Virus record (IMG/VR): IMGVR_UViG_3300032294_002823
Source of the DNA: a virus
Length of the DNA: 64,000 nucleotides
Strand: one strand, 5' to 3'
Shown here: positions 1 through 15,929 of the stretch, piece after piece
How positions within the stretch are numbered: the stretch's first letter is position 1
How the letters are laid out: each line of letters opens with the position of its first letter
The notes under the pieces: model-generated
Seen by the model: the letters and a program-made list of their open reading frames with translations, nothing else
Told to the model about the DNA's origin: nothing
The model's database searches: none
Position numbers and translations under genes: made by a program

Positions 1-345
1 ACTGAAGCTCCAACGACAACCACAACAACAGCGGCACCGACAACAACGACAACAACTGAAGCTCCAGCAACAACGACAACAACTGAAGCTCCAACGACAA
101 CCACAACAACAGCGGCACCGACAACAACGACAACAACTGAAGCTCCAGCAACAACGACAACAACAGGAGCTCCAGCAACAACGACGACAACAGCGGCACC
201 GACAACAACGACAACAACTGAAGCTCCAACGACAACAACGACAACAACAACTGAAGCTCCAACGACAACGACAACATCCACAACTACAACAACATCCACA
301 ACTACAACATCTACGACAACCACGACAACTGCGGCACCAACTACA
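1..345 (+). repeat. Coding tandem repeats (81-bp unit at 1 and 82; shorter ACA/ACG-rich units), reused at about 850-1035
   Basis: actgaagctccaacgacaaccacaacaacagcggcaccg occurs at 1 and 82; gaagctccagcaacaacgacaaca units recur at about 915-990. Confidence 0.85.
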
Positions 346-1185
346 ACACTCTGTTATAGTTCAACATTGGGACTTTCAGGTGTTCAAGGAAGTATATCTG
401 GAGCATGTTCAGCCGCAGCACAATTCACATATTATGTGGGTGGAACCAAGTTGTATACTGACTCGGGATGTGGTACATTTGCATCTAATGGGTATTACGG
501 AGATGGCGGCGGGGTATATTATCAAGTAACAGGCGCAGGTAACTTGACAGGACCAACATCGTGCCCAAGTGTCACAACAACTTCAACCACAACTACAACT
601 ACAGCAGCAACAACAACTACAACATCTTCGTGTATCTCACAGGGTATTAACTTAACAGGTCCCGCAGGAACCGCCGGAGAAGCATGTGCATTGAATGAAA
701 TAGGTGACATCTCAGTGTATGGAAGTGGTGGATTCTACTACACTAATCCTTCATGTACAACTTTTGTAGCAACAGGATTCTACAAGTCAGGATCTGATTA
801 TTATTATGCTGACGGAAGTGGTGGATTAACAGGTCCTACCGTTTGTGGAACAACAACCACAACAACTGCGGCACCGACAACGACAACAACTGCGGCACCG
901 ACAACGACAACAACTGAAGCTCCAGCAACAACGACAACAACTGAAGCTCCAGCAACAACGACAACAACAGGAGCTCCAGCAACAACGACAACAGCAGCAA
1001 CAACAACGACAACAGCAGCAACAACAACGACAACATGTGCTATAGGATGTGTAAACGGTAGTAGAACATGTATAGGTGACGTTGCTGTATGTGACCTTCA
1101 AAGTGACGATTGTTCAATCATATATGGATATACGTTAGAAACATGTGATCCTGGCTGTTGTGCAGGTGGTTTTTGTATCTGCTAA
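1..1185 (+). CDS. Thr-rich mucin-like protein with two 4-Cys modules and a 10-Cys C-terminal domain (5' end outside window); putative virion surface/fibre protein
   Basis: Frame 1 is open from base 1 (TEAPTTTTTTAAPTT...) into the 367..1185 ORF. It has TTTTT(EA/AA/GA)P repeats, two homologous modules ending GNLTGPTSC and GGLTGPTVC, and a terminal CAIGC...GCCAGGFCIC. Confidence 0.8.
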   Translation, partial: TEAPTTTTTTAAPTTTTTTEAPATTTTTEAPTTTTTTAAPTTTTTTEAPATTTTTGAPATTTTTAAPTTTTTTEAPTTTTTTTTEAPTTTTTSTTTTTSTTTTSTTTTTTAAPTTTLCYSSTLGLSGVQGSISGACSAAAQFTYYVGGTKLYTDSGCGTFASNGYYGDGGGVYYQVTGAGNLTGPTSCPSVTTTSTTTTTTAATTTTTSSCISQGINLTGPAGTAGEACALNEIGDISVYGSGGFYYTNPSCTTFVATGFYKSGSDYYYADGSGGLTGPTVCGTTTTTTAAPTTTTTAAPTTTTTEAPATTTTTEAPATTTTTGAPATTTTAATTTTTAATTTTTCAIGCVNGSRTCIGDVAVCDLQSDDCSIIYGYTLETCDPGCCAGGFCIC

Positions 1186-1214
1186 ATCATTAACAACAAG
1201 GTGATATTTACTTT

Positions 1215-2165
1215 ATGAAAAAATTGCGTTACATATCAACTCAACCTGCCATTGATTATTACACATGGCAGGTTGAGGTTATGATACATAACTTTTTAAA
1301 GAATGGTGTGAACGGAAATCACATAGATATTGTCTCCTCTTATAAAGGAACTGTTCCTGACAATTGGAGAAAATTACAGAACAAGTACAATTACATAAGA
1401 TTTTTTTTCTATGAAGATACCCGGGTAGATTCCATTTATCCGGTGACGATTCGTCCACATCTTCTGAAGAAACATTTTGCAGAGCACCCATATTTGGTGG
1501 ATGATGCCATCATGTACCATGATACAGATATTGTATTCACTAAGCCTGTGAATTGGGACCATTATTTGCATGATGATGTATGGTATGGCAGCGATGTTAT
1601 TGGATATCTAGGTTCCAAATATATTCAAAGTAAGAAGTATGGTGTGTATGAACGTATGTGTGATATTGTGGGATTGGAAGAATCCATACCAGAAGAAAAT
1701 GAATTGAACACAATAGGCGCGCAAATCATCATGAAAAATACAACTGTTGAATACTGGGAAAAGGTTGAAAAAGATTGTGAACTTCTTTATCAGTTCTTTT
1801 GCGACCATTTGAAAGCATTCCCAGAGCGTTGTTTAAATAACTACCACCCAATACAGAAATGGACAGCAGAAATGTGGGCTCTATTATGGAATGCGTGGAA
1901 ATTTGGACATGTTACAAAGATAGCAGATGATATGGACTTTTCTTGGCCTATGCATAATCTTGACAGTTGGGAAAAACATTTTATATTTCATAACGCAGGT
2001 GTAATAGCTAAAACTGCGGTAGAAGATAAAATGTTCTTCAAGGGTAATTATGTTGACGGTAAACTTCCCTTTGATATCAGGTTAGAAGATTTTGATGAGA
2101 ATAAATGTACATATAAGTATGTACAAGAGATTTTAGAAACTAAGGAAAAGACATGTCTACTATAA
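1215..2165 (+). CDS. GT-A glycosyltransferase resembling peptidyl O-glycosyltransferases (HPAT/SERGT-like)
   Basis: DxD motif in YHDTDIVFTKP, plus YYTWQ, IRPHLL and KWTAEMWA in the order of the Y..WQ / N(R/K)P / W..EMY blocks recalled for GT95/GT96. Confidence 0.6.
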   Translation: MKKLRYISTQPAIDYYTWQVEVMIHNFLKNGVNGNHIDIVSSYKGTVPDNWRKLQNKYNYIRFFFYEDTRVDSIYPVTIRPHLLKKHFAEHPYLVDDAIMYHDTDIVFTKPVNWDHYLHDDVWYGSDVIGYLGSKYIQSKKYGVYERMCDIVGLEESIPEENELNTIGAQIIMKNTTVEYWEKVEKDCELLYQFFCDHLKAFPERCLNNYHPIQKWTAEMWALLWNAWKFGHVTKIADDMDFSWPMHNLDSWEKHFIFHNAGVIAKTAVEDKMFFKGNYVDGKLPFDIRLEDFDENKCTYKYVQEILETKEKTCLL

Positions 2166-2866
2166 AACTACCAATAGAATGTGTTGAAACTAGAAAAAAA
2201 TATATCTTGTTTAAAAATGATTGTGGAGTTTCAGACCATGCTCGTTGGGGTAGTGTTTATGAATCATACACTTATGATTATATCAAAAAACATATACACA
2301 CAACTAACACAAACATCATTGACATAGGTGCAAATTTTGGATTCCACACGTTGGAATTTGCCGATTTAGTAGGTAATGGAAAAGTATTTTCTTTTGAGCC
2401 ACAACTTCTGGTATATTATCAACTTTGTGGTAACATTATTTTAAATGGATTAAGTAATGTCGTAGCGAAAAATATTGGTGTAGGTGACACAGCTACAACC
2501 TTGAAAATGCAGAATCCTAATTACTTTTCAGAAAGTAAAATTAATATAGGTGATTCTCATTTGGATTGTATTATCGAAGAAAATTTTAATGAGGTTGATG
2601 TACGAACCTTAGATTCTTTCAACATAGAAAATGTTTCAGTTATAAAAATTGATGTTCAAGGATTTGAACCTAGGGTGTTGGATGGTGCCAAAGAAACAAT
2701 TGAAAAAAATAAACCTCATATCTTTATAGAAATTGAACCTCCACAGTTGGCTTTGTATGGATACACCCCAGAGGACATTTTTAATAGATTAGATAATATG
2801 AATTACACCTTTGAAAAAACCATGGACTCTCCTCACCTTTTTGATTACGTGGCATTTCCAAAATGA
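2153..2866 (+). CDS. FkbM-family SAM-dependent methyltransferase
   Basis: IIDIGANFGFHT, VFSFEP and IKIDVQGFE motifs. Confidence 0.9.
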   Translation: MSTIKLPIECVETRKKYILFKNDCGVSDHARWGSVYESYTYDYIKKHIHTTNTNIIDIGANFGFHTLEFADLVGNGKVFSFEPQLLVYYQLCGNIILNGLSNVVAKNIGVGDTATTLKMQNPNYFSESKINIGDSHLDCIIEENFNEVDVRTLDSFNIENVSVIKIDVQGFEPRVLDGAKETIEKNKPHIFIEIEPPQLALYGYTPEDIFNRLDNMNYTFEKTMDSPHLFDYVAFPK

Positions 2867-3657
2867 AGAAAATTAGTTTTGTATGTACGACATTTAGACG
2901 ATTCACATGTGTTAAGAGAATAGTTGCTCAGTTCTATGCACAAACATATCCCAATAAAGAATTGATTATTTTCAACACGGATATGGAATACCCATACTCT
3001 AAAAACTTCCAAGATGATTCAGTTATCATTGTGAATAATGATAAAGATTATCTGACAGGTGCAGATTATATTAATCGTGCACAAATTTGTAGAGATGCTG
3101 TGACACATGCAACAGGTGAGTATTTCATGTTGGCGGACGATGATGACATATATTTACCTTGGCATATGCAACAAGCAGTAGATAGAATTGAAGAAGATGG
3201 TACAGATGCCTGGAAACCTCAAAAAAGTTTTTTTGCGACAGGCAATCGTGTTGAACTATCTCAAAACGTCATGGAAGCTAGTATAATAATTAAGATGGAA
3301 AGAATACGAGAAATTGGATTTAACGAAGGTGAGACAACAGGCCTTGAAGGTATGTCATGGTACAATGTACTGAAACAGGAAGGACACATTGTCGAAGATT
3401 ATGCATATGCTGTCCCTGGATATTCTTTTAATTGGTCTGATCCCGTTGATATTGGCGGAAATAAACAAAGTAGTACAATAGGACGAGAAAATAATTTTGA
3501 ATTGCATAAACTAGAAACTAAAGATTATGCAACATCTCCCTTAGAAAAAATCTTGGAGACAAGAGAAATTTATGAAAAATACTATGACTTTTTTAGAAAA
3601 AATTTACATCTTTTTGAACCTATACTATTGAAAAAATATGTTACCAAATTCATTTAA
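2863..3657 (+). CDS. Glycosyltransferase family 2
   Basis: ISFVCTTFRR...QTYPNKELII and ATGEYFMLADDDDIYLP. Confidence 0.85.
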   Translation: MKKISFVCTTFRRFTCVKRIVAQFYAQTYPNKELIIFNTDMEYPYSKNFQDDSVIIVNNDKDYLTGADYINRAQICRDAVTHATGEYFMLADDDDIYLPWHMQQAVDRIEEDGTDAWKPQKSFFATGNRVELSQNVMEASIIIKMERIREIGFNEGETTGLEGMSWYNVLKQEGHIVEDYAYAVPGYSFNWSDPVDIGGNKQSSTIGRENNFELHKLETKDYATSPLEKILETREIYEKYYDFFRKNLHLFEPILLKKYVTKFI

Positions 3658-4306
3658 TGACGTAGCCAATATCATTGATACATCGTCTGTACCCATTTTA
3701 ATACTTGTGATATCTGAAGGGTGTGAAAATGGATTAAGACCTGAACAACAGCAATTAGAACAAAAGCTACAAGAACATCCTACACCTGTGGTATATTACA
3801 CCTTGTGTATCCCAGAACATCTCATGGGATTCCCTCGCGCGCACACGCCCACGCTATACTATTTTCTGCCGAAAAATCAAACGCCTGTGTTTTGGCGTTT
3901 TGCGGTATTCAATAATACATTGAATGATGATTTAAACATCATCACAAAAATGATGACAGGATTGACATATGACCAAGCTCGTTTCACACCTGAAGAACAA
4001 GAAACCATTTTAAAGGTTGATTATTTTTTAGAACAGGAGAAGGAAACTATCCATAACTTTCCTTCGGTATTTCAACAGGCACGAAGTCTCGCCAAAGAAA
4101 TGTGGAAAACAGGAAAAAACGCCGCAAAGGGGTTACCTGTCATTGTTCCCACTGAAGTGGGATTTGAACGTATGAATACCTGTCAGTCATGTGACAAGTT
4201 GGAAAAAGAAACATTTCGTTGTACTGAATGTGGTTGTTTCATGAAAGCCAAGACTCAGCTCGCCTCAGCATCATGTCCGTTAAATAAATGGGCACCACAT
4301 GTATAA
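3638..4306 (+). CDS. Thioredoxin-like N-terminal domain fused to a Cys-cluster C-terminal domain (DUF6171-like)
   Basis: ILVISEGC...TPTLYYF resembles a Trx fold; C-terminal RMNTCQSC...CTECGCFMKAKT...SCPLNKW. Confidence 0.5.
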   Translation: MLPNSFNDVANIIDTSSVPILILVISEGCENGLRPEQQQLEQKLQEHPTPVVYYTLCIPEHLMGFPRAHTPTLYYFLPKNQTPVFWRFAVFNNTLNDDLNIITKMMTGLTYDQARFTPEEQETILKVDYFLEQEKETIHNFPSVFQQARSLAKEMWKTGKNAAKGLPVIVPTEVGFERMNTCQSCDKLEKETFRCTECGCFMKAKTQLASASCPLNKWAPHV

Positions 4307-4309
4307 ATA
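4302..4309 (+). promoter_or_regulatory. T4-type late promoter (gp55 sigma)
   Basis: TATAAATA upstream of the gene at 4338. Confidence 0.8.
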
Positions 4310-4337
4310 CTATAGAACGATTAATTAGGATTTCTCA

Positions 4338-4751
4338 ATGGCAACGTTAACATTACGAACAGTTAAAGGATCAACATTAACACATCAAGAACTTGATGAC
4401 AATCTCTCAAACTTGAATAGTTTCAAGGTTGAAGGTCGTGCAGGAACGTTAACAACAACAAGTACGTCATCAAATCAACTATTGGATTCTGTTGCAGCTT
4501 CTTCTGTTCGAACATTGCGATACATCGTTCAAGTTGCCAACACAACTACGAGTGAGTTTCATGCCACATCTCTCATGATTATTCATGATGGAACCACTGT
4601 GTATTTAACTGAATATGGCACTGTATTGACAGGAAATTCGTTGGCAACATTTGATGCTGATATTAATGGTGGAAATCTTCGTATTTTAGTTACGCCTACA
4701 AATGCATCATCAACGGTGTTTCGTTTTTCTGCTATGACAATTCAGGCATAA
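4338..4751 (+). CDS. Virion structural protein; C-terminal beta domain shared with the 7854..9794 fibre
   Basis: N-terminal TLRTVKGSTLTHQELDDNL; IHDGTTVYLTEYG...FDADINGGNLRILVTPT parallels the C-terminus of 7854..9794. Confidence 0.6.
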   Translation: MATLTLRTVKGSTLTHQELDDNLSNLNSFKVEGRAGTLTTTSTSSNQLLDSVAASSVRTLRYIVQVANTTTSEFHATSLMIIHDGTTVYLTEYGTVLTGNSLATFDADINGGNLRILVTPTNASSTVFRFSAMTIQA

Positions 4752-4761
4752 TTTCAAAAAT

Positions 4762-4769
4762 TATAAATA
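4762..4769 (+). promoter_or_regulatory. T4-type late promoter
   Basis: TATAAATA immediately upstream of 4778. Confidence 0.75.
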
Positions 4770-4777
4770 TTCAACAT

Positions 4778-5110
4778 ATGGCAACTGTTCGTAACTTAGT
4801 CATTGACCAAGGTAGTACATATTCAATTTCCATTGAACTGTCTGATGCCTTTGGCAATCCTTTAGATTTAACTGATTATACCATTCGTGCCCAAATGCGT
4901 AAAAGTTATGGGTCGAACACGTATACTCAATTCACAACTTCCGCAGGTGATGAACCTGAGAATGGGACAATTACATTATCATTAACATCAACTCAAACAC
5001 GAGCATTACGTTTTGGTCGTTATGTCTATGATATTGAAATTGAAAATGATGATGTAGTTACCAGAGTTCTTGAAGGAATAGTAACCGTAACACCCGAGGT
5101 CACACGATAA
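4778..5110 (+). CDS. Virion structural protein (baseplate/fibre adaptor-like Ig fold)
   Basis: NLVIDQGS...DLTDYT.RAQMRK...GRYVYDIE...RVLEG.VTVTPEVT, a pattern common in T4-like environmental phages; late promoter upstream. Confidence 0.65.
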   Translation: MATVRNLVIDQGSTYSISIELSDAFGNPLDLTDYTIRAQMRKSYGSNTYTQFTTSAGDEPENGTITLSLTSTQTRALRFGRYVYDIEIENDDVVTRVLEGIVTVTPEVTR

Positions 5111-5322
5111 TGGCACTCAAAGTACAAGTATCAACACCTCAAAGAATTAATACAAATGTAAAAAAGGTTTCGTTACCTCTAGTTAATCTAGAAGAATTGA
5201 AGAATGTGAATAAAGCTAATTTAGAAGATGGTGCCACTTTGATATGGAATGAGACGGAACAACGTTGGGATGCGCAGCAAATTCAAGCGATAGCAACAAA
5301 CATAGATGGTGGAACATATTAA
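5110..5322 (+). CDS. Small structural protein with C-terminal DGGTY tag
   Basis: LEELKNV...DGATLIWN...RW fibre-type repeat; ends IDGGTY; translationally coupled to the upstream gene. Confidence 0.6.
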   Translation: MALKVQVSTPQRINTNVKKVSLPLVNLEELKNVNKANLEDGATLIWNETEQRWDAQQIQAIATNIDGGTY

Positions 5323-5343
5323 AAACTTCAAAGGAGATTTTCC

Positions 5344-7050
5344 ATGTCAACAGTAATTCAAATTAAGCGTTCTTCAGGATCAACAGCACCAGCAACATCT
5401 GCCTTAGCAGAAGGCGAATTAGCGTATAGTCAAGACCGCTCCAACAGCGGCGCCGGCGCCATTCTTTACATCGAATCTGTAGGTTCAGATGGCACAACAC
5501 AAGTTATTGATAAAGTAGGTGGTAAATACTACACCAACACAGTTGATGCCTTCTTAGTTCCTGCCACAGGATCAGCAGGTGCAAAGGTGGAATTAAAGGA
5601 TGCTGACGCATCAAATTCCATCACATTAAAGGCACCTAACACAGTTGCAGCGAACGTTACATACACATTACCTTCAACATTCAGTGCAGACCAATATTTA
5701 AAGACTGACGGTTCAGGTAATCTTTCATTCGCTGCCGTTCCATCAGGATCCTTCACACTTGCAGCTGACACAGGCACTGACACTTTCACAACAGGTGAAA
5801 CATTAACATTCACTGGCGGTGAAGGTATTGATACATCAGTTAGCGATAACACCATCACAATTTCTGCCGAAGATGCATCTGATACCAACAAGGGTATTGC
5901 ATCATTTAACAGTACCAACTTCACAGTATCATCAGGTGCTGTAACCATCAATTCTGTTGAAGCCACTAAGGTTAATATTGCAGGTGGCACATCATTAACA
6001 TCATTGGCTGATTCTGATGAATTCTTGGTCTATGATGCCTCAGCAGAAGCAAATCGTCGCATCACAGCAGAAAACGTTGCAGATTACATCTATGCCGGAT
6101 TGTCAGGTGACATCAGTGTAACTGAAGCAGGTGTAGTTTCTATTGCCGCTAACTCAGTAGCACTAGGCACAGACACAACAGGTAACTATGTTGCCACTGT
6201 TGCGGGTACTGCAAATCAAATTTCCATCACTGGCTCAGGCTCAGAAAATGCCGCTGTTACAGTTGCATTAACTGACGATGTGGCATTGGTAGGTGATTTG
6301 ACAGTTGGTGGTAACGACATCAAGATGAGTGGTGGCACAACAGCCATTACATTCTCAGGTTCAGGTGATGTTGCCGTTACTGGTGATTTGAAGGTTGGTG
6401 GTAACGACATCAAGACAGCCAACGGAGCAACTGCTTTAACACTTTCAGATTCAACAGGTAATGTTGAAGTTAAGGGTGATTTACAAGTTACAGGTAACGA
6501 TATCAAGTCATCAACAGGCGCAACAGCTTTAACACTTGATGGCGCTAACGTAACTGTGGCAGGTAACTTAACAGTTAACGGTTCATCAACAATTGTAAAC
6601 TCAACAACTGTAACAATTGATGACGTACTCTTGAAGTTGGCTGATAACAACACAGGCAACTCAGTTGACTCAGGTGTCTATGCTGAATATGTTGAATCAT
6701 CAACAACCAAATATGCTGGTTTCTTCCGCGATGCGTCTGATAACAACATCTTCAAGTTCTTCAAAGGATTAGAATCAGAACCATCAACAACTGTTAACGT
6801 AAGTGGTACAGGTTACTCAGTTGGTACAATCTTAGCCAACTTGACAGGCGGTACTGTTTCAAGTCTAGCAGCAGCAATTGGTGTTGCCGATGGTGGTACA
6901 GGAGCCACAACATTAACAAGTAACGGTGTATTGTATGGTAACGGTACAAGTGCCATTCAAGCAACAGCAGCAGGTACAGCGGGATACTTCTTGTATTCAA
7001 ACAACGGCACGCCTGCTTGGACTAACGTAGTAGATGGTGGTACTTACTAA
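5344..7050 (+). CDS. Tail fibre-like structural protein
   Basis: N-terminal IQIKRS...LAEGELA domain; three GDL.V.GNDIK repeats; ends VDGGTY; SD aaggag upstream. Confidence 0.75.
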   Translation: MSTVIQIKRSSGSTAPATSALAEGELAYSQDRSNSGAGAILYIESVGSDGTTQVIDKVGGKYYTNTVDAFLVPATGSAGAKVELKDADASNSITLKAPNTVAANVTYTLPSTFSADQYLKTDGSGNLSFAAVPSGSFTLAADTGTDTFTTGETLTFTGGEGIDTSVSDNTITISAEDASDTNKGIASFNSTNFTVSSGAVTINSVEATKVNIAGGTSLTSLADSDEFLVYDASAEANRRITAENVADYIYAGLSGDISVTEAGVVSIAANSVALGTDTTGNYVATVAGTANQISITGSGSENAAVTVALTDDVALVGDLTVGGNDIKMSGGTTAITFSGSGDVAVTGDLKVGGNDIKTANGATALTLSDSTGNVEVKGDLQVTGNDIKSSTGATALTLDGANVTVAGNLTVNGSSTIVNSTTVTIDDVLLKLADNNTGNSVDSGVYAEYVESSTTKYAGFFRDASDNNIFKFFKGLESEPSTTVNVSGTGYSVGTILANLTGGTVSSLAAAIGVADGGTGATTLTSNGVLYGNGTSAIQATAAGTAGYFLYSNNGTPAWTNVVDGGTY

Positions 7051-7071
7051 TAACTTTTTAAAGGATTCGTT

Positions 7072-7254
7072 ATGGACACACAAAAACTTTTGAATAAGTA
7101 CATTGCCTCTTTGGGTGAGCAAGTTAAGCAGTTAACAATGGAAAAAACAATGTTGTCTGCTCAACTTGCCATCGCCCAAGAGGAATTGGAAGAATTGAAA
7201 AAGAAGTTAGATACTTCCCCATCAACTGAAGAAAATAATCAATGGCAACAATAA
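7072..7254 (+). CDS. Small coiled-coil protein (possible fibre chaperone)
   Basis: Heptad pattern; SD aagga; lies within the fibre operon. Confidence 0.55.
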   Translation: MDTQKLLNKYIASLGEQVKQLTMEKTMLSAQLAIAQEELEELKKKLDTSPSTEENNQWQQ

Positions 7255-7595
7255 TTAAGCTTAAAAGAAGCGAGTTAGCATTAGCTATACCAACCGTCAA
7301 TGATTTGGCGGTTGGTGAACTTGCTATAAATACTGTTGATAAAGTTTTCTACATCAAAACATCAGGTAATCTGGTTGTTCCTGTTGCCAATTATGTTGAT
7401 ATTGATGCTGAAGCAATTGATAATCGGTTAGAAATTTTAGAAGATGCTTTGATAGGAGCAACATTTCCCATAGGCGATTATGGAAATTTAAATGCTCTTT
7501 CTGTGGACGCTTTTGGTATTTCCGTTAGTCCCACGTATGACTGCTTAAATACTCCTATAGGAGCAGTAGCAGAAATAGATTTAGGCGCATTCTAA
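7242..7595 (+). CDS. Small fibre-associated structural protein
   Basis: IIKLKRS...LAVGELAINTVD N-domain like 5344; ends IDLGAF. Confidence 0.6.
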   Translation: MATIIKLKRSELALAIPTVNDLAVGELAINTVDKVFYIKTSGNLVVPVANYVDIDAEAIDNRLEILEDALIGATFPIGDYGNLNALSVDAFGISVSPTYDCLNTPIGAVAEIDLGAF

Positions 7596-7612
7596 ATATA
7601 GAGGTAACTTCA

Positions 7613-7819
7613 ATGCCAACACCAACTGTCGTACAATTTCGTAGAGGTACTACAGCACAAAACAATTTGTTTACAGGAGCAGAAGGAGAAATTTCTGTAG
7701 ACATTTCTAAAGGAACCATTCGCGTCCATGACGCAGTAACACCGGGTGGGCATGAGTTGATGAAAGTAGATTTAACCAACGTTGCAAATAACGCCAGTTT
7801 GGATGGCGGAACATATTAA
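7613..7819 (+). CDS. Stand-alone fibre N-terminal (Mtd_N-like) domain protein
   Basis: VQFRRGTTAQNNLFTGAEGEISVD...HDAVTPGG, near-identical to the N-terminus of 7854; ends LDGGTY. Confidence 0.7.
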   Translation: MPTPTVVQFRRGTTAQNNLFTGAEGEISVDISKGTIRVHDAVTPGGHELMKVDLTNVANNASLDGGTY

Positions 7820-7853
7820 TGAAAAATACATGACCCGCTTAGGAGAATAATAG

Positions 7854-9794
7854 ATGCCAACACAGGTACAGTTTCGCAGAGGTACTACAACACAGAACAA
7901 TAATTTCACAGGCGCTGCCGGTGAAATTTCTATAGATACCGAAGTAAAAACCATTAGATTACATGATGGCTCCACAGCGGGCGGTATAACAATGGCAAGA
8001 GCTGATTTGTCAAACACATCAGCCATTACTGGTTCTAGTACAACTACATTAACAAACAAGACATTCAATTTATCGAGCAATACATTATCAGGAACAATTG
8101 CTCAGTTCAACACCGCCCTTTCAGACGGTGATTTTGCCACATTGGCAGGTGTTGAAACATTAACAAACAAAACAATTAATGGTGATAACAACACCATTAC
8201 AAATATTGCCAATGGCTCATTAAAAAATAGTAGTATCACGATTAACGGTACATCAACATCACTAGGTGGTACACGAACACTTGTCACCGATGATATTGCA
8301 GAAACAGTCACACCTACCAATAGATATTTCACTGATGCGCGTGCGCGCGGTGTTATTTCTGTAACTGATTCAGGTGGTGATGGTAGTTTAAGTTACAACT
8401 CAACGTCGGGTGTCATCACATATACAGGTCCCAGTGCCACAGAAGTTCGAGCACATTTTTCAGGGGGCACAGGTGTCACAATTTCATCAGGTGTTGTGGC
8501 TATCGGACAAGAAGTAGGAACAGGCTCAAATGTTACATTTAACAATTTAACTGTTTCAGGAAATCTTACAGTTTCAGGCACAAGTACCACAGTTAATACT
8601 GAAACTATTAATCTTGCTGATAACATCATCGTATTGAATAGTAACGCCTCAGGAGCTCCTACTGAAAATGCCGGTCTTGAAGTAAGTAGAGGAACATCAG
8701 ATGCCGTTCAACTTCGTTGGAATGAAGCAAATGATGTATGGGAATACACCAATGACGGTACCACATATTTTGTTGTAACGGGTGCCACTGCAACACAAAC
8801 ATTGACAAACAAGACCATTAGTGGTTCTAGTAACACCATCAGTAATATTGCCAATAGTTCATTAACAAATAGCAGTATCACCATTAACGGTACATCAGTA
8901 TCATTGGGCGGCACACGAACATTAACTGCCGATGATGTTGCTGAAGCAGGTTCACCCACAAATAAGTATTTCACAGATGCGCGTGCTCGCGGCGCCATCT
9001 CTGTATCTGATGTAAGTGGCGATGGTAGCTTATCATATAGTTCATCTACGGGTGTCATCACATATACAGGTCCCAGTGCCACAGAAGTTCGTGCCCATCT
9101 ATCGGCAGGCACAGGATTAACATATACCTCAGGACAATTTGCCATTGATTCATCAGTTGTAACATTGTCAGGTGAACAAACATTAACCAATAAAACCATT
9201 AATGGTGACCAATTGGTTAACGGGTCTGTGGGAAATGTTAAGCTGTCACACAGTACCATTTCAGGTGTTGCATTAGGACATAATTTAAATGCACTAACAA
9301 TTGGTACAGGACTTTCAGGATCATCATATAATGGTTCAAGTTCTGTTACCATTGCCATTGATTCAACAGTTGCAACGTTGTCAGGCACACAAACATTAAC
9401 GAACAAAACTCTTACAAGTCCTACACTCACAACACCTACATTGGGTGTGGCAACAGCAACATCTGTTGCATTAGCCAATGGTATTCTTCGTTCAGCTACA
9501 CTGACAACATCTGCCACAACAGCAAATCAAGTGTTAGATAGTATTGCAATTGCAACATATAGAAGTGTGAAATATCAAATTTCCATCACATCAGGATCTG
9601 CATATCAAATGACTGAAGTTAGCCTCATTCATGATGGAACCGGAGCCTATATCACAGAATATGGTACCATTTCAACAGGCGCATCATTGGCAGACTTTCA
9701 TGCTGATATTTCAAGCGGTAATCTTCGTTTGTTAACAACACCCACAAACGCAGCCACTACATATAAAATCATGGCAACTGCCATCAACGTATAA
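7854..9794 (+). CDS. Tail fibre protein with an internal duplication
   Basis: VQFRRGT N-domain; repeated TLTNKT and YFTDARAR...TYTGPSATEVRAH blocks. Confidence 0.8.
   Translation: MPTQVQFRRGTTTQNNNFTGAAGEISIDTEVKTIRLHDGSTAGGITMARADLSNTSAITGSSTTTLTNKTFNLSSNTLSGTIAQFNTALSDGDFATLAGVETLTNKTINGDNNTITNIANGSLKNSSITINGTSTSLGGTRTLVTDDIAETVTPTNRYFTDARARGVISVTDSGGDGSLSYNSTSGVITYTGPSATEVRAHFSGGTGVTISSGVVAIGQEVGTGSNVTFNNLTVSGNLTVSGTSTTVNTETINLADNIIVLNSNASGAPTENAGLEVSRGTSDAVQLRWNEANDVWEYTNDGTTYFVVTGATATQTLTNKTISGSSNTISNIANSSLTNSSITINGTSVSLGGTRTLTADDVAEAGSPTNKYFTDARARGAISVSDVSGDGSLSYSSSTGVITYTGPSATEVRAHLSAGTGLTYTSGQFAIDSSVVTLSGEQTLTNKTINGDQLVNGSVGNVKLSHSTISGVALGHNLNALTIGTGLSGSSYNGSSSVTIAIDSTVATLSGTQTLTNKTLTSPTLTTPTLGVATATSVALANGILRSATLTTSATTANQVLDSIAIATYRSVKYQISITSGSAYQMTEVSLIHDGTGAYITEYGTISTGASLADFHADISSGNLRLLTTPTNAATTYKIMATAINV
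8407..9091 (+). repeat. Identical 43-bp direct repeat (8407-8449 and 9049-9091) within a duplicated fibre module
   Basis: cgggtgtcatcacatatacaggtcccagtgccacagaagttcg occurs twice. Confidence 0.85.
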
Positions 9795-9821
9795 TTTTAA
9801 CAGCCAAGAGGACAGAGAATC

Positions 9822-12260
9822 ATGGCAACAACAAAACGATTTGTCGCAAAAAACGGATTAGACAACAACGCTCAAAGCATCACAAACGTTGGTGTGTCAG
9901 GATCAACTTTAACAATGTCAAATGCCCATAGTTTGACATTAACAACATCAGGAAATTCAACATTAACAGTTCCCTCAGGATCAGCCACGTTACTTTCTAG
10001 TGGTGGCGCATTGGGAACTCCCAGTTCAGGTACATTAACCAACTGCTCAGGACTTCCTGTATCATCAGGTATTTCTGGATTAGGCACGGGTGTTGCCACA
10101 TTCTTGGCAACACCATCAAGTGCCAACCTATTAGCGGCTGTTACAGATGAAACAGGCACAGGCGCATTGGTGTTTGCCAATACTCCAACACTTGTCACAC
10201 CTACGTTAGGTGTCGCAACAGCAACTAGTGTCAACAAAGTTGCCATCACAGCTCCCGCGACATCAGCAACATTAACCATTGCTGATGGCAAGACATTAAC
10301 AGCAAGTAACACATTGACACTTACAGGTACCGATTCAAGTTCTGTGGCATTTGGCACAGGCGGTACAGTGGCATATACATCAAATAAACTCAGTGCATTT
10401 GCCTCAACATCATCGTCTGAATTGGCAGGAGTACTTTCAGATGAGACAGGTACAGGCGCGTTGGTGTTTGCCAATACTCCAACACTTGTTACACCTGTTC
10501 TTGGTACACCTACGTCAGGTACTTTATCAAACTGTACCGGTCTTCCTGTATCAACAGGTATTTCTGGATTGGGTACAGGTGTTGCCACATTCTTGGCAAC
10601 ACCAACAAGCGCAAATCTTCTTGCAGCAGTCACAGATGAAACAGGCACAGGTACTTTAGTATTCTCTGCTAGCCCTACATTCACAGGAACCGTTAGCGCC
10701 GCTAATTTGACATTGAGTGGCGATTTAACTGTGAACGGTACAACTACTACAATTAATTCAACAACAATTTCTGTTGACGATAAGAATATTGAATTAGGTG
10801 CTGTTTCATCTCCTTCCAATACAACAGCTGATAATGGTGGTATCACATTAAGAGGTACAACAGACAAAACATTTAATTGGGTGAACTCTACAGGTGCCTG
10901 GACAAGTTCTGAGCACATTGAAATTGCCTCAGGTAAGAGTTTGTTCCTCAAAGGTTCAACATCAGGAACCATCACAGTATCTCCTGCTGCAACAGCAGGC
11001 ACTAACACTCTTACTATCCCAGCAGTAACAGGTACTGTTGTTACAACAGGTGACACAGGAAGTGTCACAAACACCATGTTGGCGGGAAGTATTGCTAATG
11101 CTAAACTTACTAATAGTACCATCTCAGGTGTGGCATTAGGTAGTAATTTAAATACATTGACAATTGGTACTGGGTTGTCAGGCACAAGTTATAACGGATC
11201 AGCAGGTGTCACAATTGCCAATACAGGTGTCACAAGTAACGTGGCAGGCACAGGTATTTCTTTGTCAGGGGGCACGGGCGCTGTCACCATCACCAACTCA
11301 GGTGTAACAAGTGCTGTTGCGGGCACAGGTATTTCTTTGTCAGGCGGCACAGGTGCTGTTACCATTACAAACTCAGGTGTAACTGCTGTTAACGGCAGTA
11401 CAGGTTCTGTCACGGTAGCGGCAACCAATCAAACGATGAACATTGGTACCACAGCCGTTGCCATTAATCGAGGTTCGGCAAACTTAGCGTTGACAGGTAT
11501 TTCAAGTGTGGCAATGCCAGGCTCAACATCAGGTACAGTGACATTACAACCTGCAGCAACAGCAGGCACCACAACAATCACATTACCCGCTACAACAGGT
11601 ACTGTGATTACATCAGGTGATTCTAGTACAGTCACGAATACAATGTTGGCAGGTAGTATTGCCAACGCAAAGTTGACTAACAGTTCCGTTACTGTCACAG
11701 CGGGTACAGGTATGTCAGGCGGCGGTTCTGTTGCACTTGGTAGTTCAATAACCTTGACAAATGCGGGCGTCACAGGTATCACTGGAGGAACAGGCGTGAC
11801 TGCATCAGCCTCAACGGGCAGCGTAACGGTGTCTATCGGGCAAGCAGTAGCAACATCTTCAAACGTACAATTTGGTGGTATAGGTGTAGGCACAGGTACT
11901 ATTGCAAGTAACGAAGTTCGAGCAACAGGCGAAATCACAGCCTTCTTCTCATCGGATGCTCGATTGAAGGAAAATGTAACTCCTATTACTAACGCTCTAG
12001 AAAAGTTGAGTCAAATTCGCGGTGTGAAATTTGATTGGACACAAAGTCATATAGATAGTAGAGGCGGAGAAGATGGTTACTTTGTGCGTAAGCATGATGT
12101 GGGTGTGATTGCCCAAGAAGTTGAAGCTGTCCTTCCAGAAGTTGTTGCAGACAGAGAAGATGGATTCAAGGCTGTAAAGTATGACAAACTTGTTCCTCTT
12201 TTGATTGAAGCCATTAAGGAATTACAAGCCGAAGTTGCTGAACTCAAAAAATCTCGTTAA
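9822..12260 (+). CDS. Long tail fibre with C-terminal peptidase S74 intramolecular chaperone
   Basis: G/T/S-rich repeats (DETGTG, GVTS.VAGTGISLSGGTGAVTITN); SSDARLKENV...GVIAQEVE.VLPEVV...YDKLVPLLIEAIKEL. Confidence 0.85.
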   Translation: MATTKRFVAKNGLDNNAQSITNVGVSGSTLTMSNAHSLTLTTSGNSTLTVPSGSATLLSSGGALGTPSSGTLTNCSGLPVSSGISGLGTGVATFLATPSSANLLAAVTDETGTGALVFANTPTLVTPTLGVATATSVNKVAITAPATSATLTIADGKTLTASNTLTLTGTDSSSVAFGTGGTVAYTSNKLSAFASTSSSELAGVLSDETGTGALVFANTPTLVTPVLGTPTSGTLSNCTGLPVSTGISGLGTGVATFLATPTSANLLAAVTDETGTGTLVFSASPTFTGTVSAANLTLSGDLTVNGTTTTINSTTISVDDKNIELGAVSSPSNTTADNGGITLRGTTDKTFNWVNSTGAWTSSEHIEIASGKSLFLKGSTSGTITVSPAATAGTNTLTIPAVTGTVVTTGDTGSVTNTMLAGSIANAKLTNSTISGVALGSNLNTLTIGTGLSGTSYNGSAGVTIANTGVTSNVAGTGISLSGGTGAVTITNSGVTSAVAGTGISLSGGTGAVTITNSGVTAVNGSTGSVTVAATNQTMNIGTTAVAINRGSANLALTGISSVAMPGSTSGTVTLQPAATAGTTTITLPATTGTVITSGDSSTVTNTMLAGSIANAKLTNSSVTVTAGTGMSGGGSVALGSSITLTNAGVTGITGGTGVTASASTGSVTVSIGQAVATSSNVQFGGIGVGTGTIASNEVRATGEITAFFSSDARLKENVTPITNALEKLSQIRGVKFDWTQSHIDSRGGEDGYFVRKHDVGVIAQEVEAVLPEVVADREDGFKAVKYDKLVPLLIEAIKELQAEVAELKKSR

Positions 12261-12277
12261 TTTAGGAGTAGTATACC

Positions 12278-12556
12278 ATGGGTACAATACCAGCAACTGG
12301 TACTAGAATAGGTATGGGATTTGCAGCTAAAGCATTTGGGTTAGCTGGTAATGCAGCACGCGGTACATATGCTGTTCGATTACGCGGAAATTCCGGTGAT
12401 AATGCAGGTCTAGGACAAAATGCTTGGACTACGCTAAACTCCACCACATCAGGTACAACAGATAAACGAGGACAAGCTGCTCCAACCGGCACAATGCAAC
12501 TCAGTGCCCACTTAGGATTAAAATCCACCCCCTTTGATTACACTGGACCATCCTAA
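12278..12556 (+). CDS. Small protein downstream of fibre (possible tip/adhesin component)
   Basis: SD aggag; position directly after the S74 fibre; Gly/Thr-rich. Confidence 0.45.
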   Translation: MGTIPATGTRIGMGFAAKAFGLAGNAARGTYAVRLRGNSGDNAGLGQNAWTTLNSTTSGTTDKRGQAAPTGTMQLSAHLGLKSTPFDYTGPS

Positions 12557-12557
12557 C

Positions 12558-12586
12558 TTGACAATATAAGTAATAGTAGTTAAATT
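12558..12586 (+). promoter_or_regulatory. sigma70-type promoter
   Basis: TTGACA-N17-TAAATT. Confidence 0.65.
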
Positions 12587-12613
12587 AATACATTATTTCT
12601 TTTTGAGGTGATT

Positions 12614-13075
12614 ATGACTGACGTAAACATTGATACACTAATACAATCCATTAATGAAAACCCATCGGAATATGAAGAACGATATTTCCGATGGGTTTCT
12701 ATTGGTTATGACAAACAAACTCTCGTAAAGATGTTATATGAATTGAAATATCTTCGTGAGCAAGAAGTAAAGGATGAAAAGAAGATTGCGTTATTTGAAA
12801 AAATTTTAAGCGAACAAGATTTAAACTTTCTTCAAAATTTATTGTCCAATGACTTCCATGCCTCTAGAATGGCAATGATTGAAAAGTATTCTCGTATTGC
12901 TGCAATGGAAATTTTAATTGATGGTAAATATTCTGTTGAAACATTGAACACCATCACACAATTTCCTTTGGGTGATTATCAATTAGTGGTAATGAGAACA
13001 CAGGAACTAGTAGGTCTCATCAACGATATCTCCACCCAGGCATCTGATTTGGCATCAGGAGTTCCAGGATTATGA
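12614..13075 (+). CDS. Hypothetical protein
   Basis: ORF with SD gaggtg; overlaps the next gene by ATGA. Confidence 0.7.
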   Translation: MTDVNIDTLIQSINENPSEYEERYFRWVSIGYDKQTLVKMLYELKYLREQEVKDEKKIALFEKILSEQDLNFLQNLLSNDFHASRMAMIEKYSRIAAMEILIDGKYSVETLNTITQFPLGDYQLVVMRTQELVGLINDISTQASDLASGVPGL

Positions 13076-13779
13076 AAAGTTTATACACCGTGAGTAGTTG
13101 GAAAACAGGTAAAAAACAGGACAACCCCACAAAACTTGCCATTTTAGTTCCTTGCCGTGAAACAGTTGAAACACTGTTTGCATCAGCTTTGACGGAACTT
13201 GTTAAAGCCACAACAAAGGTGGGGATGGATGTCTATACTCTATTTGATACCAGTACGATTCTTTTAAATCAACGAGAAAAATTGGCACAGCAAGCATTAG
13301 AAATGAATGCTGACTATGTTCTTTGGTTGGATTCTGATATGATGTTTCCACCAACAACAGCACTTCGTTTAATGGCACATGATAAAGATATTGTTGCTGC
13401 CAATTATATGAAACGATCCACTCCGTTAACTACAGTAGCATATAAGACTCGGGGTGATTGGGATAGTTGGTTACCCCTAGAATCTCAAACAGATTTAGAA
13501 AAGGTAGAAGGTATTGGCATGGGATGTATGTTAATGAAAACACATATCCTACATGAATTAGAAAAACCTTGGTTTAGTTTTGAGTGGAAAGATGATTCAT
13601 GGCACGGGGAAGACTTTTTCTTTCAAGAAAAACTACGACAGGCAGGGCATGATATTTTTGTTGATATGAATCTAAGCCGTCAAATTCGTCATATAGGTAA
13701 CTGGGCATTTGGACCTAGTATTGGTACCAATCAAGAACAAATCATTAAACGTCAAATAAAGAGAAATAAAAATGCTTGA
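13072..13779 (+). CDS. GT-A fold glycosyltransferase (GT2-like)
   Basis: ADYVLWLDSDMMFP, GIGMGCMLM, GEDFFF and IRHIG motifs. Confidence 0.8.
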   Translation: MKSLYTVSSWKTGKKQDNPTKLAILVPCRETVETLFASALTELVKATTKVGMDVYTLFDTSTILLNQREKLAQQALEMNADYVLWLDSDMMFPPTTALRLMAHDKDIVAANYMKRSTPLTTVAYKTRGDWDSWLPLESQTDLEKVEGIGMGCMLMKTHILHELEKPWFSFEWKDDSWHGEDFFFQEKLRQAGHDIFVDMNLSRQIRHIGNWAFGPSIGTNQEQIIKRQIKRNKNA

Positions 13780-14893
13780 TAATGAAACTTGGTTATTGCA
13801 TAGTGACGTATTTAAAAAACATTGGATAGTTGAAAGTAAAAATTGGGCACGGTCTTTAGGTTGGTTTTCTGAACTACATGATAGTGCATTAGACACAGAT
13901 GGGTGGTTACTATATGGAGACCATGAGTTACAAGTATCTGATTACATCAATATTGTTGATGCTCTAGATGCTGAAAAGAAACTGTATGCATATAAAGATA
14001 ACAACTGGACCTTCATCCACGGACCTATACTTTTTACTGTTAGAAAAAATGACAATGAAGTGTTTGTTGCTGGTTGGGCAGGTGAAAAAAACATTATTGC
14101 TGAGTTAAAGGAAAAAGAAAATAATCCATGGCAGTGGCCGGGTATTCACACAGTAGAAATTACTCCTAAAATTGCCATGCCAGTATCACAAGCAATCGTA
14201 CCACAGAAAATTCAATTACCTGTATTTTTCGTCAGTAACGGTGAAACTAATGCTGAAGAAAATTGGCATCACCTTAAAAGAATTTGTCCTCGTGCACATC
14301 GCGTGGAAAACATCAATGGTAGACGACGGATGTTTCAAGAATGTGCCACATTGGCAGGAGCTGCATCGCACTTTTTCATTGTCACCGGAAAAAACTTTGT
14401 AACAGATAGTACTGTATTTGATTTCTATCCCACATCTGATGTTCCAAAATCTCATATTGTTTTTCAATCTCGGAATATGAGTAATCGTTTAGAATATGGA
14501 CATATGGCAATTGTGTGTTACAACACTGAAGTTGTACTCAGTACGCCCGAAACATTCGGTCTAGATTTCACTGAATATGGAACCATTCATCTAATACCTA
14601 AAACTGTGAGTGAAGGACACTTTGCTACAACACCGTTTGAAGCGTGGAGAACAGCATTCCGTGAAACTGTAAAACTTACTATGCGGGATAATCAGGAACA
14701 ATCAAAACAGTGGTTAAAACGTTGGCTATCGTTTGCTGAGGGTGCTCACAGTGAATGGGTACTGTTAGGTGCTCAACAAGGACACGAATATGCCTTACAG
14801 CATCGAGGAAATATTGAAGAACTATTAAAAACTGTGGATTGGAATTGGCTATCAGAGTATTTCCATAAAACAGCACAGGTTGTTTCAATATAA
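13772..14893 (+). CDS. Phage glycosyltransferase-like protein with a degenerate DxD site
   Basis: VFFVSNGETNAEENW...TPFEAWRTAFRETVKL resembles a phage GT-A-like family; FFIVTGKN sits where VDxD is expected. Confidence 0.45.
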   Translation: MLDNETWLLHSDVFKKHWIVESKNWARSLGWFSELHDSALDTDGWLLYGDHELQVSDYINIVDALDAEKKLYAYKDNNWTFIHGPILFTVRKNDNEVFVAGWAGEKNIIAELKEKENNPWQWPGIHTVEITPKIAMPVSQAIVPQKIQLPVFFVSNGETNAEENWHHLKRICPRAHRVENINGRRRMFQECATLAGAASHFFIVTGKNFVTDSTVFDFYPTSDVPKSHIVFQSRNMSNRLEYGHMAIVCYNTEVVLSTPETFGLDFTEYGTIHLIPKTVSEGHFATTPFEAWRTAFRETVKLTMRDNQEQSKQWLKRWLSFAEGAHSEWVLLGAQQGHEYALQHRGNIEELLKTVDWNWLSEYFHKTAQVVSI

Positions 14894-14904
14894 TCATGAA
14901 TTAG

Positions 14905-14912
14905 TATAAATA
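14905..14912 (+). promoter_or_regulatory. T4-type late promoter for gp13
   Basis: TATAAATA. Confidence 0.8.
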
Positions 14913-14940
14913 GTTGGGAGATGATTTCCCAACTATTTTT
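14908..14940 (+). terminator. Intrinsic terminator overlapping the late promoter
   Basis: Stem aaatagttgggag / tttcccaactattt followed by a T run. Confidence 0.7.
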
Positions 14941-14954
14941 ATTAGAGAGAGACC

Positions 14955-15929
14955 ATGGCTATTACAACACGCCAAGAATTAAAAGATTATTGTTTGCGTC
15001 GTTTAGGGTATCCCGTCATTGAAATCAATGTAGATGACGACCAAATAGAAGATAGAATTCAAGATGCCATTGACTTTTTTCATGAGTATCATTTCGATGG
15101 AGTGGAACGTGTTTATTTCACCCCAAAAATTACTTTATCTGAACTCTTTCTTTCAGGTATTTTAGGTGAAAATTTTGAAATAGGTGAGACTGTAGAAGGG
15201 GCAACATCAGAAGCCATAGGTGTTGTTGTTAGAAAATCACCTGGTATTTTAGTTATTAAAGGAGATGATCCTTTAAGACCTTTCGTTGCCAATGAAGTTA
15301 TTACAGGTTCGACTTCAGGATTTTCAACTACACTTCGAAACACGAATCCATATTTTGCAGGATCATTTGCAAAAAAATATTTTGATGTAGCGGACCCGGT
15401 CACAGGTGTTATCCGCGTTTTCCCATTGGGGTCAGCAGGATCAAGTTCAGCAGGCACCACAAATATTTTCAATGTTGTATATCAATTCAGATTGAATGAC
15501 ATGTATAATTTGTTGTCATCTGATGTTACATATTACAATCAAGTGAAAATGCACTTACAATTACTTGATGATATGTTTGCGGGTAATAGAACTATTCGTT
15601 TCAATAGAAAAATGAATCGTTTGTATATTGATGTAAATTGGGAAGAAACATTTTCTGAGGGTGATTATGTGGCAGTTGAGGCTTTTGTGATGGTTGAACC
15701 AGAAACATTCACAGAAGTATATAATGATATGTTTTTAAAGAGATATGCCACAGCCCTTATCAAACGTCAATGGGGTACAAACTTAAAGAAGTTCCAAGGT
15801 ATGCAACTTCCAGGCGGCGTTCAAATGGATGGTCAACGCATGTTCGAAGAATCCATGGAAGAAATTCGTCAAATCGAAACAGAAATGCAAAGTCGCTACG
15901 AACTTCCTGTTGACTTTATGGTGGGATAA
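14955..15929 (+). CDS. gp13: Neck protein gp13
   Basis: RQELKDYCLRRLGYPVIEINVDDDQIEDRI and YATALIKRQWG motifs; synteny. Confidence 0.95.
   Translation: MAITTRQELKDYCLRRLGYPVIEINVDDDQIEDRIQDAIDFFHEYHFDGVERVYFTPKITLSELFLSGILGENFEIGETVEGATSEAIGVVVRKSPGILVIKGDDPLRPFVANEVITGSTSGFSTTLRNTNPYFAGSFAKKYFDVADPVTGVIRVFPLGSAGSSSAGTTNIFNVVYQFRLNDMYNLLSSDVTYYNQVKMHLQLLDDMFAGNRTIRFNRKMNRLYIDVNWEETFSEGDYVAVEAFVMVEPETFTEVYNDMFLKRYATALIKRQWGTNLKKFQGMQLPGGVQMDGQRMFEESMEEIRQIETEMQSRYELPVDFMVG

Follow-up and report, generated by a model that had tools for sequence, protein, structure and literature searches.

Gene layout at the left end of the window

Five genes on the + strand, closely packed or overlapping, occupy the left end (1..4306) of a 64,000-nucleotide stretch of viral DNA, IMG/VR record IMGVR_UViG_3300032294_002823, which in its full length is called the window here. 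The genes are situated within a fibre module and encode a threonine-rich (Thr-rich) protein, an orphan glycosyltransferase (GT), an FkbM-family methyltransferase, a second GT and a protein with a DUF6171 motif, which together constitute a candidate cassette for the O-glycosylation of a phage protein. The presence of terminase, sheath, portal, scaffold, gp23-type capsid, gp15, UvsW-type helicase and gp43 polymerase in T4 order indicates that the source phage is a T4-like myovirus, and, because Methylophilales phage Melnitz and Pelagibacter phage HTVC008M have capsid proteins 65-67% identical to its own, it is considered a marine relative. A cultured match to positions 1..6000 of the window was not found by Megablast among 50,697 phage records.

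An earlier note made from the letters alone had described a Thr-rich open reading frame (ORF) followed by a DxD glycosyltransferase, an FkbM methyltransferase and a GT2, an order that is confirmed by ORFs and family matches: the C-terminal part of the Thr-rich protein (1..1185, ORF open at the 5' end) is followed by the orphan GT (1215..2165), the methyltransferase (2153..2866) and the GT2 (2863..3657). Equally, the enzyme genes do overlap, the first two by 13 nt and the latter two by 4 nt, and do precede fibre-like genes, which are encountered from 4338 on (PHROG tail matches, Mtd_N, Peptidase_S74). Beyond this description, the span includes a fifth gene with a DUF6171 C-terminus (3638..4306), overlapping the GT2 gene by 20 nt, and ~100 residues at the N-terminus of the Thr-rich protein are missing from the window. 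No transmembrane (TM) segment was found in any of the five cassette proteins.

The T4-type late promoter motif TATAAATA occurs in 12 copies in the window versus 3.35 expected, among other positions at 4302, 4762, 14905, 19536, 26006 and 27340, with copies directly upstream of fibre, sheath, scaffold and capsid genes. As judged by motif match and enrichment, the copy at 4302..4309 (+ strand) would start the next transcription unit, and the preceding copy is located in the near-identical contig L117 (L117:913) before a Peptidase_S74 fibre gene that itself precedes the Thr-rich gene. Being flanked by these two late promoter motifs, the fibre gene, the Thr-rich gene and the enzyme genes probably form a single late unit.

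The orphan GT-A enzyme and its coupling to poly-threonine tracts

The product of 1215..2165 is a single-domain protein of 316 aa that matches phrog_4417 ('unknown function') with an E value of 1e-67 over residues 5-310. No Pfam or NCBIfam family was identified for this protein, nor any Pfam family for 42 aligned homologues at E up to 1, and no sequence relative was found in the PDB. Its AlphaFold model (predicted local distance difference test, pLDDT, 95.3; predicted template modelling score, pTM, 0.92) displays a GT-A fold, for which Foldseek delivered 173 matches at E <=1e-3, all of them GT-A enzymes among the matches listed. The motifs Y101-x-D103-x-D105, GAQ168-170 and H259-N-A-G are invariant in the 42 homologues, and with the GT-A model and the invariant D103-x-D105 the earlier designation as a DxD glycosyltransferase turned out to be right. 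In a VIA search, the highest fold-comparison Z scores were obtained with glycogenin (14.6), LgtC (14.4), the Skp1 alpha-galactosyltransferase (14.4), WbbM (14.0), the GT8 protein 3tzt (13.9), the catalytic domain of UGGT (13.8), LARGE1 (13.2) and GlyE of the serine-rich-repeat pathway (5gvv; 13.1), and the GT8 clan scores at Z 13-14.6 over 211-246 aligned residues. Several of these best matches act on proteins. Retaining GT8-type enzymes thus seem to be the closest folds of the modelled protein, and GT8 enzymes such as glycogenin and LgtC share with it the combination of GT-A fold, DxD motif and distal His. By sequence, however, the family stands outside GT8, as PF01501 (Glyco_transf_8) is absent from all 42 aligned members at E up to 1.

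The term 'mucin-type', which had been applied to the locus in the earlier note, describes the acceptor with its tandem Pro/Thr/Ser repeats well, but holds for the enzyme by analogy only, as it is not a GT27 by sequence and its nearest folds are GT8-type. Neither a PF00535-type signature nor a ricin-type lectin domain, the hallmarks of GT27, was detected in 1215..2165, and GT27 is not among the best 50 matches of either fold search.

Word search retrieved 313 homologues, every one named 'hypothetical', and a profile search extended the family to 1013 clusters at 50% identity, with many members of 500-1160 aa. In ten sampled long members, the extra domains are GT2, GT6, GT7C, GT32-like, GT25-like, Methyltransf_24 and radical SAM-SPASM domains; furthermore, a class I methyltransferase-like domain, recognised by eye, is fused to one family member, and the C-terminal half of the DUF6171 protein to another one (P0064). 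On the level of sequence, such fusions fit the logic of an initiating enzyme combined with tailoring enzymes. A radical SAM-SPASM enzyme is also encoded directly downstream of the GT homologue in some aquatic phages (L015:11919-12944 and L020:10942-11967) and fused to it in P0130 (658 aa), which suggests a further modification tied to the same pathway. A description of this GT family or of a poly-Thr rule was not found in the literature searched, which is no proof of its absence.

The association of this family with poly-Thr tracts was analysed by a six-frame scan of 80 viral loci, fetched out of 193 found, with GT homologues of 32-64% identity. With the first criteria (80% Ser/Thr in 15 aa; at least 9 Thr in 12), 22-30 loci were classified as 'without' a run; a Ser/Thr-rich run according to the first criterion is situated <=3 kb from the GT in 58 of the 80 loci. 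Strict Thr runs reach a density of 0.75/kb in the 1 kb directly upstream of the GT versus ~0.02-0.03/kb beyond 4 kb (~30-fold), and those near the GT are nearly all located on the same strand. As inspection revealed that most apparent exceptions carry shorter terminal tails of 6 to 10 Thr, the criterion was restated as at least six consecutive Thr, and such a run is present within 4 kb of the GT in 73/80 loci, nearly always in the gene directly upstream; three of the seven misses have less than 600 nt of upstream sequence. The density of these runs is 0.44/kb near the GT versus 0.046/kb further away. The coupling is thus near-obligate, and the check by which the earlier note had let its proposal stand or fall, the occurrence of GT homologues without any Thr/Ser-rich neighbour, came out in favour of an enzyme and its substrate. 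Beyond the closest relatives, no neighbour of the GT other than the poly-Thr protein is conserved. In the window itself, 1..1185 is the sole ORF that carries a run of at least six consecutive Thr, and G001, a relative of 124 kb, has runs of six Thr codons in the orthologous gene alone, which leaves the Thr-rich protein as the sole candidate substrate.

The nature of the tract differs with the phage group. In siphophages of the Gram-positive genera Enterococcus, Lactobacillus, Staphylococcus and Clostridium, the major tail protein, whose gene immediately precedes the GT, carries the tract at its extreme C-terminus; the GT is positioned between major tail protein and tail chaperones inside the late structural operon, and the major head protein encoded ~2 kb away also ends in poly-Thr. 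In aquatic phages, the product of the gene before the GT is a modular protein of 300-1150 aa, very diverse between phages, that contains the tracts as long internal linkers; equally, in the cultured Chryseobacterium phage MA9V-3, a PPTTTTTTSTTTTTTSSTTTTTTAAPT linker is encoded in the gene directly upstream of the GT homologue. In one locus, the gene L016:6634-8523, upstream of another Thr-linker protein and the GT homologue, codes for a phage subtilase (PF00082, 1.1e-34) with a C-terminal poly-Thr linker and a further domain, possibly a glycosylated enzyme on or with the virion.

Joint gain and loss of enzyme and tract can be followed among 27 loci that encode a homologue of the phiFL1A major tail protein (Enterococcus phiFL-like phages). 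All 12 tail proteins with a GT downstream end in ...TTTTTTxxTTTTTTT, in contrast to 0/14 tail proteins without GT, which end shortly past the conserved core; equally, a poly-Thr tail on the capsid protein is present in 11/12 loci with GT versus 0/14 without. No Thr runs were found across 110 kb of GT-less phiFL-type loci. Tail proteins of either state intermingle in a tree of their cores, which requires four changes, at least two of which are forced by well-supported branches. That the GT and the Thr-rich protein relate as enzyme and substrate, as originally proposed for the window, is strongly supported by this joint gain and loss and by the co-occurrence.

The candidate substrate and the candidate tailoring genes

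The ORF 1..1185 encodes the C-terminal 394 residues of a modular Thr/Pro/Ala-rich protein, the full length of which (495 aa, Thr 35.8%, no TM segment) was taken from contig L117 (L117:2039-3526). From the N- to the C-terminus, a 74-aa domain, a ~145-aa linker, a module, a shorter linker, a second module, a third linker and a domain with ten Cys follow each other, and the three low-complexity linkers (residues 75-217, 293-311 and 384-446) together contain 162 Ser/Thr. In the window, translation and tandem repeats delimit the end of the long mucin-like linker (1..351) with its 27-nt or 9-aa repeats TTTTTT(E/A)AP, that is, units such as TTTTTTEAP and TTTTTTAAP, and the tandem repeats of the linker DNA have periods of 27 and 81 nt. 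Subsequently, copy A (352..567; hidden Markov model (HMM) iteration and AlphaFold) and copy B (631..849; HMM iteration, 38% identical to copy A) of a 72-aa Cys-containing beta module are followed by the third Thr/Ala/Pro linker (850..1035; translation and composition) and by a knot-like C-terminal domain of 50 aa with ten Cys (1036..1185; translation). The number of the 27-nt repeats differs between window positions 1-351 and L117:2300-2760 in assemblies that are otherwise identical, which reflects either true length variation of the mucin-like tract or assembly collapse.

The 72-aa module with its two invariant Cys recurs in many proteins of aquatic phages, found upon HMM iteration on the Thr linkers of proteins from six other GT loci (L015, L016, L020, L023, L026 and L028). 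Its AlphaFold model is a small beta domain (pLDDT 89.9) without a counterpart among solved structures (best Z 3.4) and without a Pfam family, which resembles uncharacterised proteins from uncultured phages with template modelling scores of 0.8-0.88; it is a candidate for a new small domain. A carbohydrate-binding or other role was considered and could not be assigned, as the best Z to a solved structure is this 3.4. G001-type relatives share the C-terminal domain with ten Cys at 67% identity. In another locus (L013:6820-7842, residues 158-183), a Cys-rich segment flanked by Thr linkers, with weak matches to knottin-type Pfam families (Toxin_35, 0.0012), resembles this domain. For the N-terminal domain, word search detected only three homologues, and its look-alikes are unnamed viral proteins. 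Its first 22 residues are common to the Thr-linker protein of a distant phage, the gene of which likewise follows a giant structural gene; by sequence, this fits an attachment domain.

Downstream of the orphan GT, the candidate glycan O-methyltransferase 2153..2866 is a member of the FkbM family of S-adenosylmethionine (SAM)-dependent methyltransferases (PF05050, 1.4e-16, 61.5 bits versus a cut-off of 22.7; TIGR01444, 1.5e-30, 106.5 bits versus a cut-off of 37.7) with weak similarity to Vibrio cholerae RfbT (E 0.0016). The candidate glycan extender 2863..3657 is a GT2 glycosyltransferase (PF00535, 3.6e-7, 30.7 bits versus a cut-off of 23.3, residues 5-118), conserved at 59-63% in L009-L013, with weak similarity to PglI (8.6e-6, far under its cut-off). 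Both weak similarities give a hint of work on glycans. The 222-aa product of 3638..4306 with its C-terminal DUF6171 Cys motif (PF19668, 1.7e-5) is part of the cassette, as it is 93% conserved in G001 relatives and adjoins the GT in L014. A thioredoxin-like N-terminus (~165 residues) of this protein, suggested by nothing but an Atlas score of 0.77, was weak and has not been used; a role as a redox or folding helper is conceivable, as the substrate is rich in paired Cys, but unsupported.

In the nearest relatives, with ~80% DNA identity in the flanks (G001 and L009-L012), substrate, GT, GT2 and DUF6171 gene are all retained, while the FkbM gene (window 2153-2866) is replaced by a different FkbM-type gene together with an extra PF04488 DXD glycosyltransferase (L007:12580-13785 in G001). 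This reads like a cassette swap as expected of glycan-tailoring genes. A second cluster of three overlapping genes is located between fibre and neck genes of the window (12608-14893); the product of its middle gene (13072..13779) matches Anp1, a GT62-type mannosyltransferase (PF03452, 5.9e-10), and the cluster might feed the same glycan or another one.

Proposed glycosylation of a phage protein, alternative readings and known counterparts

Considering gene content and coupling together, it is rather likely that the locus is a late-expressed cassette for protein O-glycosylation in the cytoplasm. For the transfer reaction, the sugar, the order of the enzymes, the methylation of the glycan and the location on the virion, we infer the following course of events. 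The soluble candidate initiating enzyme 1215..2165 would, with a nucleotide sugar and a metal bound to the DxD motif, put the first sugar on poly-Thr hydroxyls of the protein encoded upstream, which offers ~160 Ser/Thr over its three linkers. This first linkage would probably be alpha, as the nearest folds are retaining GT8-type enzymes. The GT2 (2863..3657) might then add a further sugar and the FkbM enzyme (2153..2866) O-methylate the glycan; the extending and the capping role are plausible in light of the family fusions and of the gene set of mycobacteriophage Che8 discussed below. The product would be an extended mucin-like glycoprotein with small disulfide-type modules spaced by stiff glycosylated linkers, most likely part of the virion as a fibre or a decoration, because its gene is probably co-transcribed with fibre genes. 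With the substrate and the first GT retained and the tailoring genes exchanged between close relatives, the glycan would differ between strains. As a candidate acceptor for 1215..2165, a reporter with TTTTTTAAPTTTTTT might serve in place of the full Thr-rich protein.

Several observations weigh against this course of events. In the reverse direction, 118 viral loci were sampled for eight consecutive ACN codons; these encode an in-frame run of at least 8 Thr in 79 loci, but the GT is present in only 7/79 of the latter (adjoining the gene with the Thr run in 5/7) and in 6/50 of those having at least 1.5 kb downstream. Poly-Thr is thus common without the GT, so that the tracts can be plain linkers or acceptors of other enzymes; on the other hand, as poly-Thr is much commoner than the GT and the GT almost never occurs alone, the asymmetry is the one of an enzyme and its acceptor. 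In the phiFL-like phages, the tail of the tail protein adjoins the GT, such that a single recombination event might transfer the two together; the coupled tail of the capsid protein, which lies 2 kb off and does not adjoin the GT, argues against pure hitch-hiking, within this one phage group. In the serine-rich-repeat pathway, GT8-type enzymes extend glycans and do not initiate them. A gene for the synthesis of a nucleotide sugar did not turn up in the locus. Neither Pfam nor PHROGs provided a structural family for the Thr-rich protein, and tblastn with its non-repetitive part and its N-terminal 75 residues gave no usable match, so that no cultured relative with the substrate gene was found; its place on the virion is for these reasons a putative one and, like the function of a coat, derived from gene position and analogy.

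Whether the enzymes have another target altogether has to be considered, namely the polysaccharide or lipopolysaccharide (LPS) of the host envelope or the phage DNA, with the Thr-rich protein as an unmodified fibre and its Thr/Pro tracts as plain spacers. Marine T4-like phages possess many GT genes that are usually read as modifiers of the cell surface, as has been proposed for cyanophage GT clusters (PMC12801897), and the frequency of poly-Thr linkers in viral proteins lacking this GT as well as the Anp1-like second GT cluster of the window (13072..13779) are compatible with such a target. However, it would leave unexplained why a poly-Thr tract lies beside the GT throughout the family and why GT and tails are gained and lost together on homologous capsid and tail proteins. 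Furthermore, the enzymes lack a TM segment, and the GT is located inside late structural operons and not in lysogeny or DNA-metabolism modules. Based on the coupling data and this position, modification of host LPS or DNA has been set aside as improbable.

If poly-Thr is the target, the group transferred could still be a sugar-1-phosphate, in a Stealth-like phosphoglycosylation, or another nucleotide-activated group. A weak match to Stealth_CR2 (E 0.04) spans residues 244-278 including the invariant HNAG, and among the matches listed Stealth-type phosphotransferases and GT-A relatives such as CpsY and GlcNAc-1-phosphotransferases score at Z ~10 and nucleotidyltransferases at ~9.6-10.4, which would be compatible with such a transfer. 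Yet the Stealth match is far under its cut-off (14.5 versus 39.4 bits) and restricted to 2/42 members, GT8-type glycosyltransferases score clearly higher over their 211-246 aligned residues, and the fusion partners of the family are ordinary GTs, which makes such a transfer hardly probable. Slightly more credible, but still unlikely, is a Thr-rich protein that is glycosylated but not part of the virion, either set free at lysis in soluble form, where it might serve as a decoy, as a factor for matrix formation or aggregation or as a shield against proteases or grazers, or acting inside the cell. That no structural family is recognised in the protein, that the subtilase of L016 as one GT-linked Thr-linker protein is an enzyme rather than a fibre, and that disulfide-type modules suggest oxidising seawater and not necessarily a particle surface would agree with this possibility; against it, the Thr-rich gene is part of one late unit with the Peptidase_S74 fibre gene, between baseplate and fibre genes, the carriers of the tract are virion proteins wherever those of a lineage can be named, and the 22 residues in common with the distant phage are as expected of an attachment domain.

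Glycosylation of a virion protein by the cassette, the reading preferred here, has its closest precedent in the mycobacteriophages Che8, Corndog and Myrna, in which phage enzymes glycosylate the capsid and the tail tube at their C-termini (Freeman et al. 2023, Cell Host Microbe, cited through PMC12363180, PMC12619734 and PMC13445384). According to one of these papers, glycosylation of the mycobacteriophage virion blunts antibody recognition (PMC12363180). Che8 gp108 is a PF00535 GT2 fused to a TylF/Methyltransf_24 domain, gp109 a PF00535 GT2 and gp110, the essential GT, a GT25-like PF01755 protein. Much as is proposed for the window, structural proteins of Che8 are modified in the cytoplasm by soluble GTs that the phage itself encodes, and the parts list of GT-A enzyme, GT2 and O-methyltransferase is alike, although the methyltransferase families differ (PF05050 in the window). 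The acceptors of Che8, C-termini of capsid and tail tube, correspond to those of the Gram-positive relatives of the window GT, but end in ...NKTGS and ...YSDGS and not in poly-Thr, while the acceptor in the window is a dedicated mucin-like protein; the hosts are actinobacteria for Che8-type phages and marine Gram-negative-type bacteria or Firmicutes here. Homology of the window GT family with Che8 gp110 was considered and rejected (hhalign probability 0.2; no PF01755 in the window GT). The two systems would thus have the same logic and parts list, with a different initiating enzyme and acceptor and, in the window, an added dedicated mucin-like substrate.

Among cellular systems, the serine-rich-repeat adhesins of streptococci and staphylococci are similar in the cytoplasmic O-glycosylation of long Ser/Thr tracts by soluble GTs encoded beside the substrate, and the GT8 enzyme GlyE of this pathway is, as noted above, among the best structural matches of 1215..2165. 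However, in the serine-rich-repeat pathway the GT4 pair GtfA/B initiates and GT8 enzymes extend, accessory Sec export belongs to the pathway, and the repeats are Ser-based dipeptides in contrast to Thr/Pro/Ala here. GT4 or Sec families did not turn up in general scans of the annotated genes within 1..17478, where no search was aimed at them, and in siphophages with the window-type GT no other GT was found by similarity near the acceptors. Eukaryotic mucins, with tandem Pro/Thr/Ser repeats between Cys-rich modules (PTS domains) and a bottle-brush product, look like the substrate, but are modified in the Golgi by GT27 polypeptide GalNAc-transferases with a lectin domain, whereas a reaction in the bacterial cytoplasm by an enzyme without those signatures is proposed here. 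Glycogenin demonstrates that a GT8 fold is able to glycosylate a protein hydroxyl directly.

Viral counterparts outside the mycobacteriophages are more distant. Chlorovirus PBCV-1 glycosylates a virion protein by virus-encoded enzymes in the cytoplasm, with methylated sugars and fusions of GTs and methyltransferases, as proposed here; its A064R protein consists of two rhamnosyltransferase domains and a methyltransferase domain, and A64R (2p6w) is present in the fold list of 1215..2165 with Z 10.8, below the GT8 clan. PBCV-1 is, unlike the source of the window, a giant virus of eukaryotes with atypical N-linked capsid glycans and without a poly-Thr acceptor. In T4, Hoc is a dispensable Ig-like decoration of the capsid that binds glycans and for which weak adhesion to glycans or gels has been proposed ('bacteriophage adherence to mucus'); in contrast to Hoc, the Thr-rich protein would itself bear glycans.

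Phage-encoded glycosylation of virions has so far been demonstrated in mycobacteriophages, and a second, non-homologous system is indicated here, a variant of virion O-glycosylation that is widely distributed and, as it seems, has not been described in this distribution before. The balance tips towards the view that the GT-A family and the encoded poly-Thr tracts are a portable pair of enzyme and tag for the O-glycosylation of the phage's own particle proteins, which spans siphophages of Enterococcus, Lactobacillus, Staphylococcus and Clostridium, a Chryseobacterium phage and marine T4-like myoviruses, and which has been scaled up in aquatic phages to mucin-like fibres with strain-variable, methyl-capped glycans. 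The rule is simple, a poly-Thr tract with its cognate GT, and applies to phages of Gram-positive bacteria of medical and industrial importance (Enterococcus, Staphylococcus, Lactobacillus, Lactococcus and Clostridium) as well as to abundant aquatic phages. If true, glycosylation of the virion would be a common trait of phages and not a curiosity of actinobacteriophages, the puzzling Thr-rich linker proteins of marine phages would be explained, and a function would be provided for ~1000 clusters of 'hypothetical' proteins. Equally, the picture of capsid and tail surfaces in therapeutic and dairy phages would have to be revised with respect to immunogenicity, stability and adsorption, and the minimal pair of Thr tag and transferase would become available for glyco-engineering in the cytoplasm.

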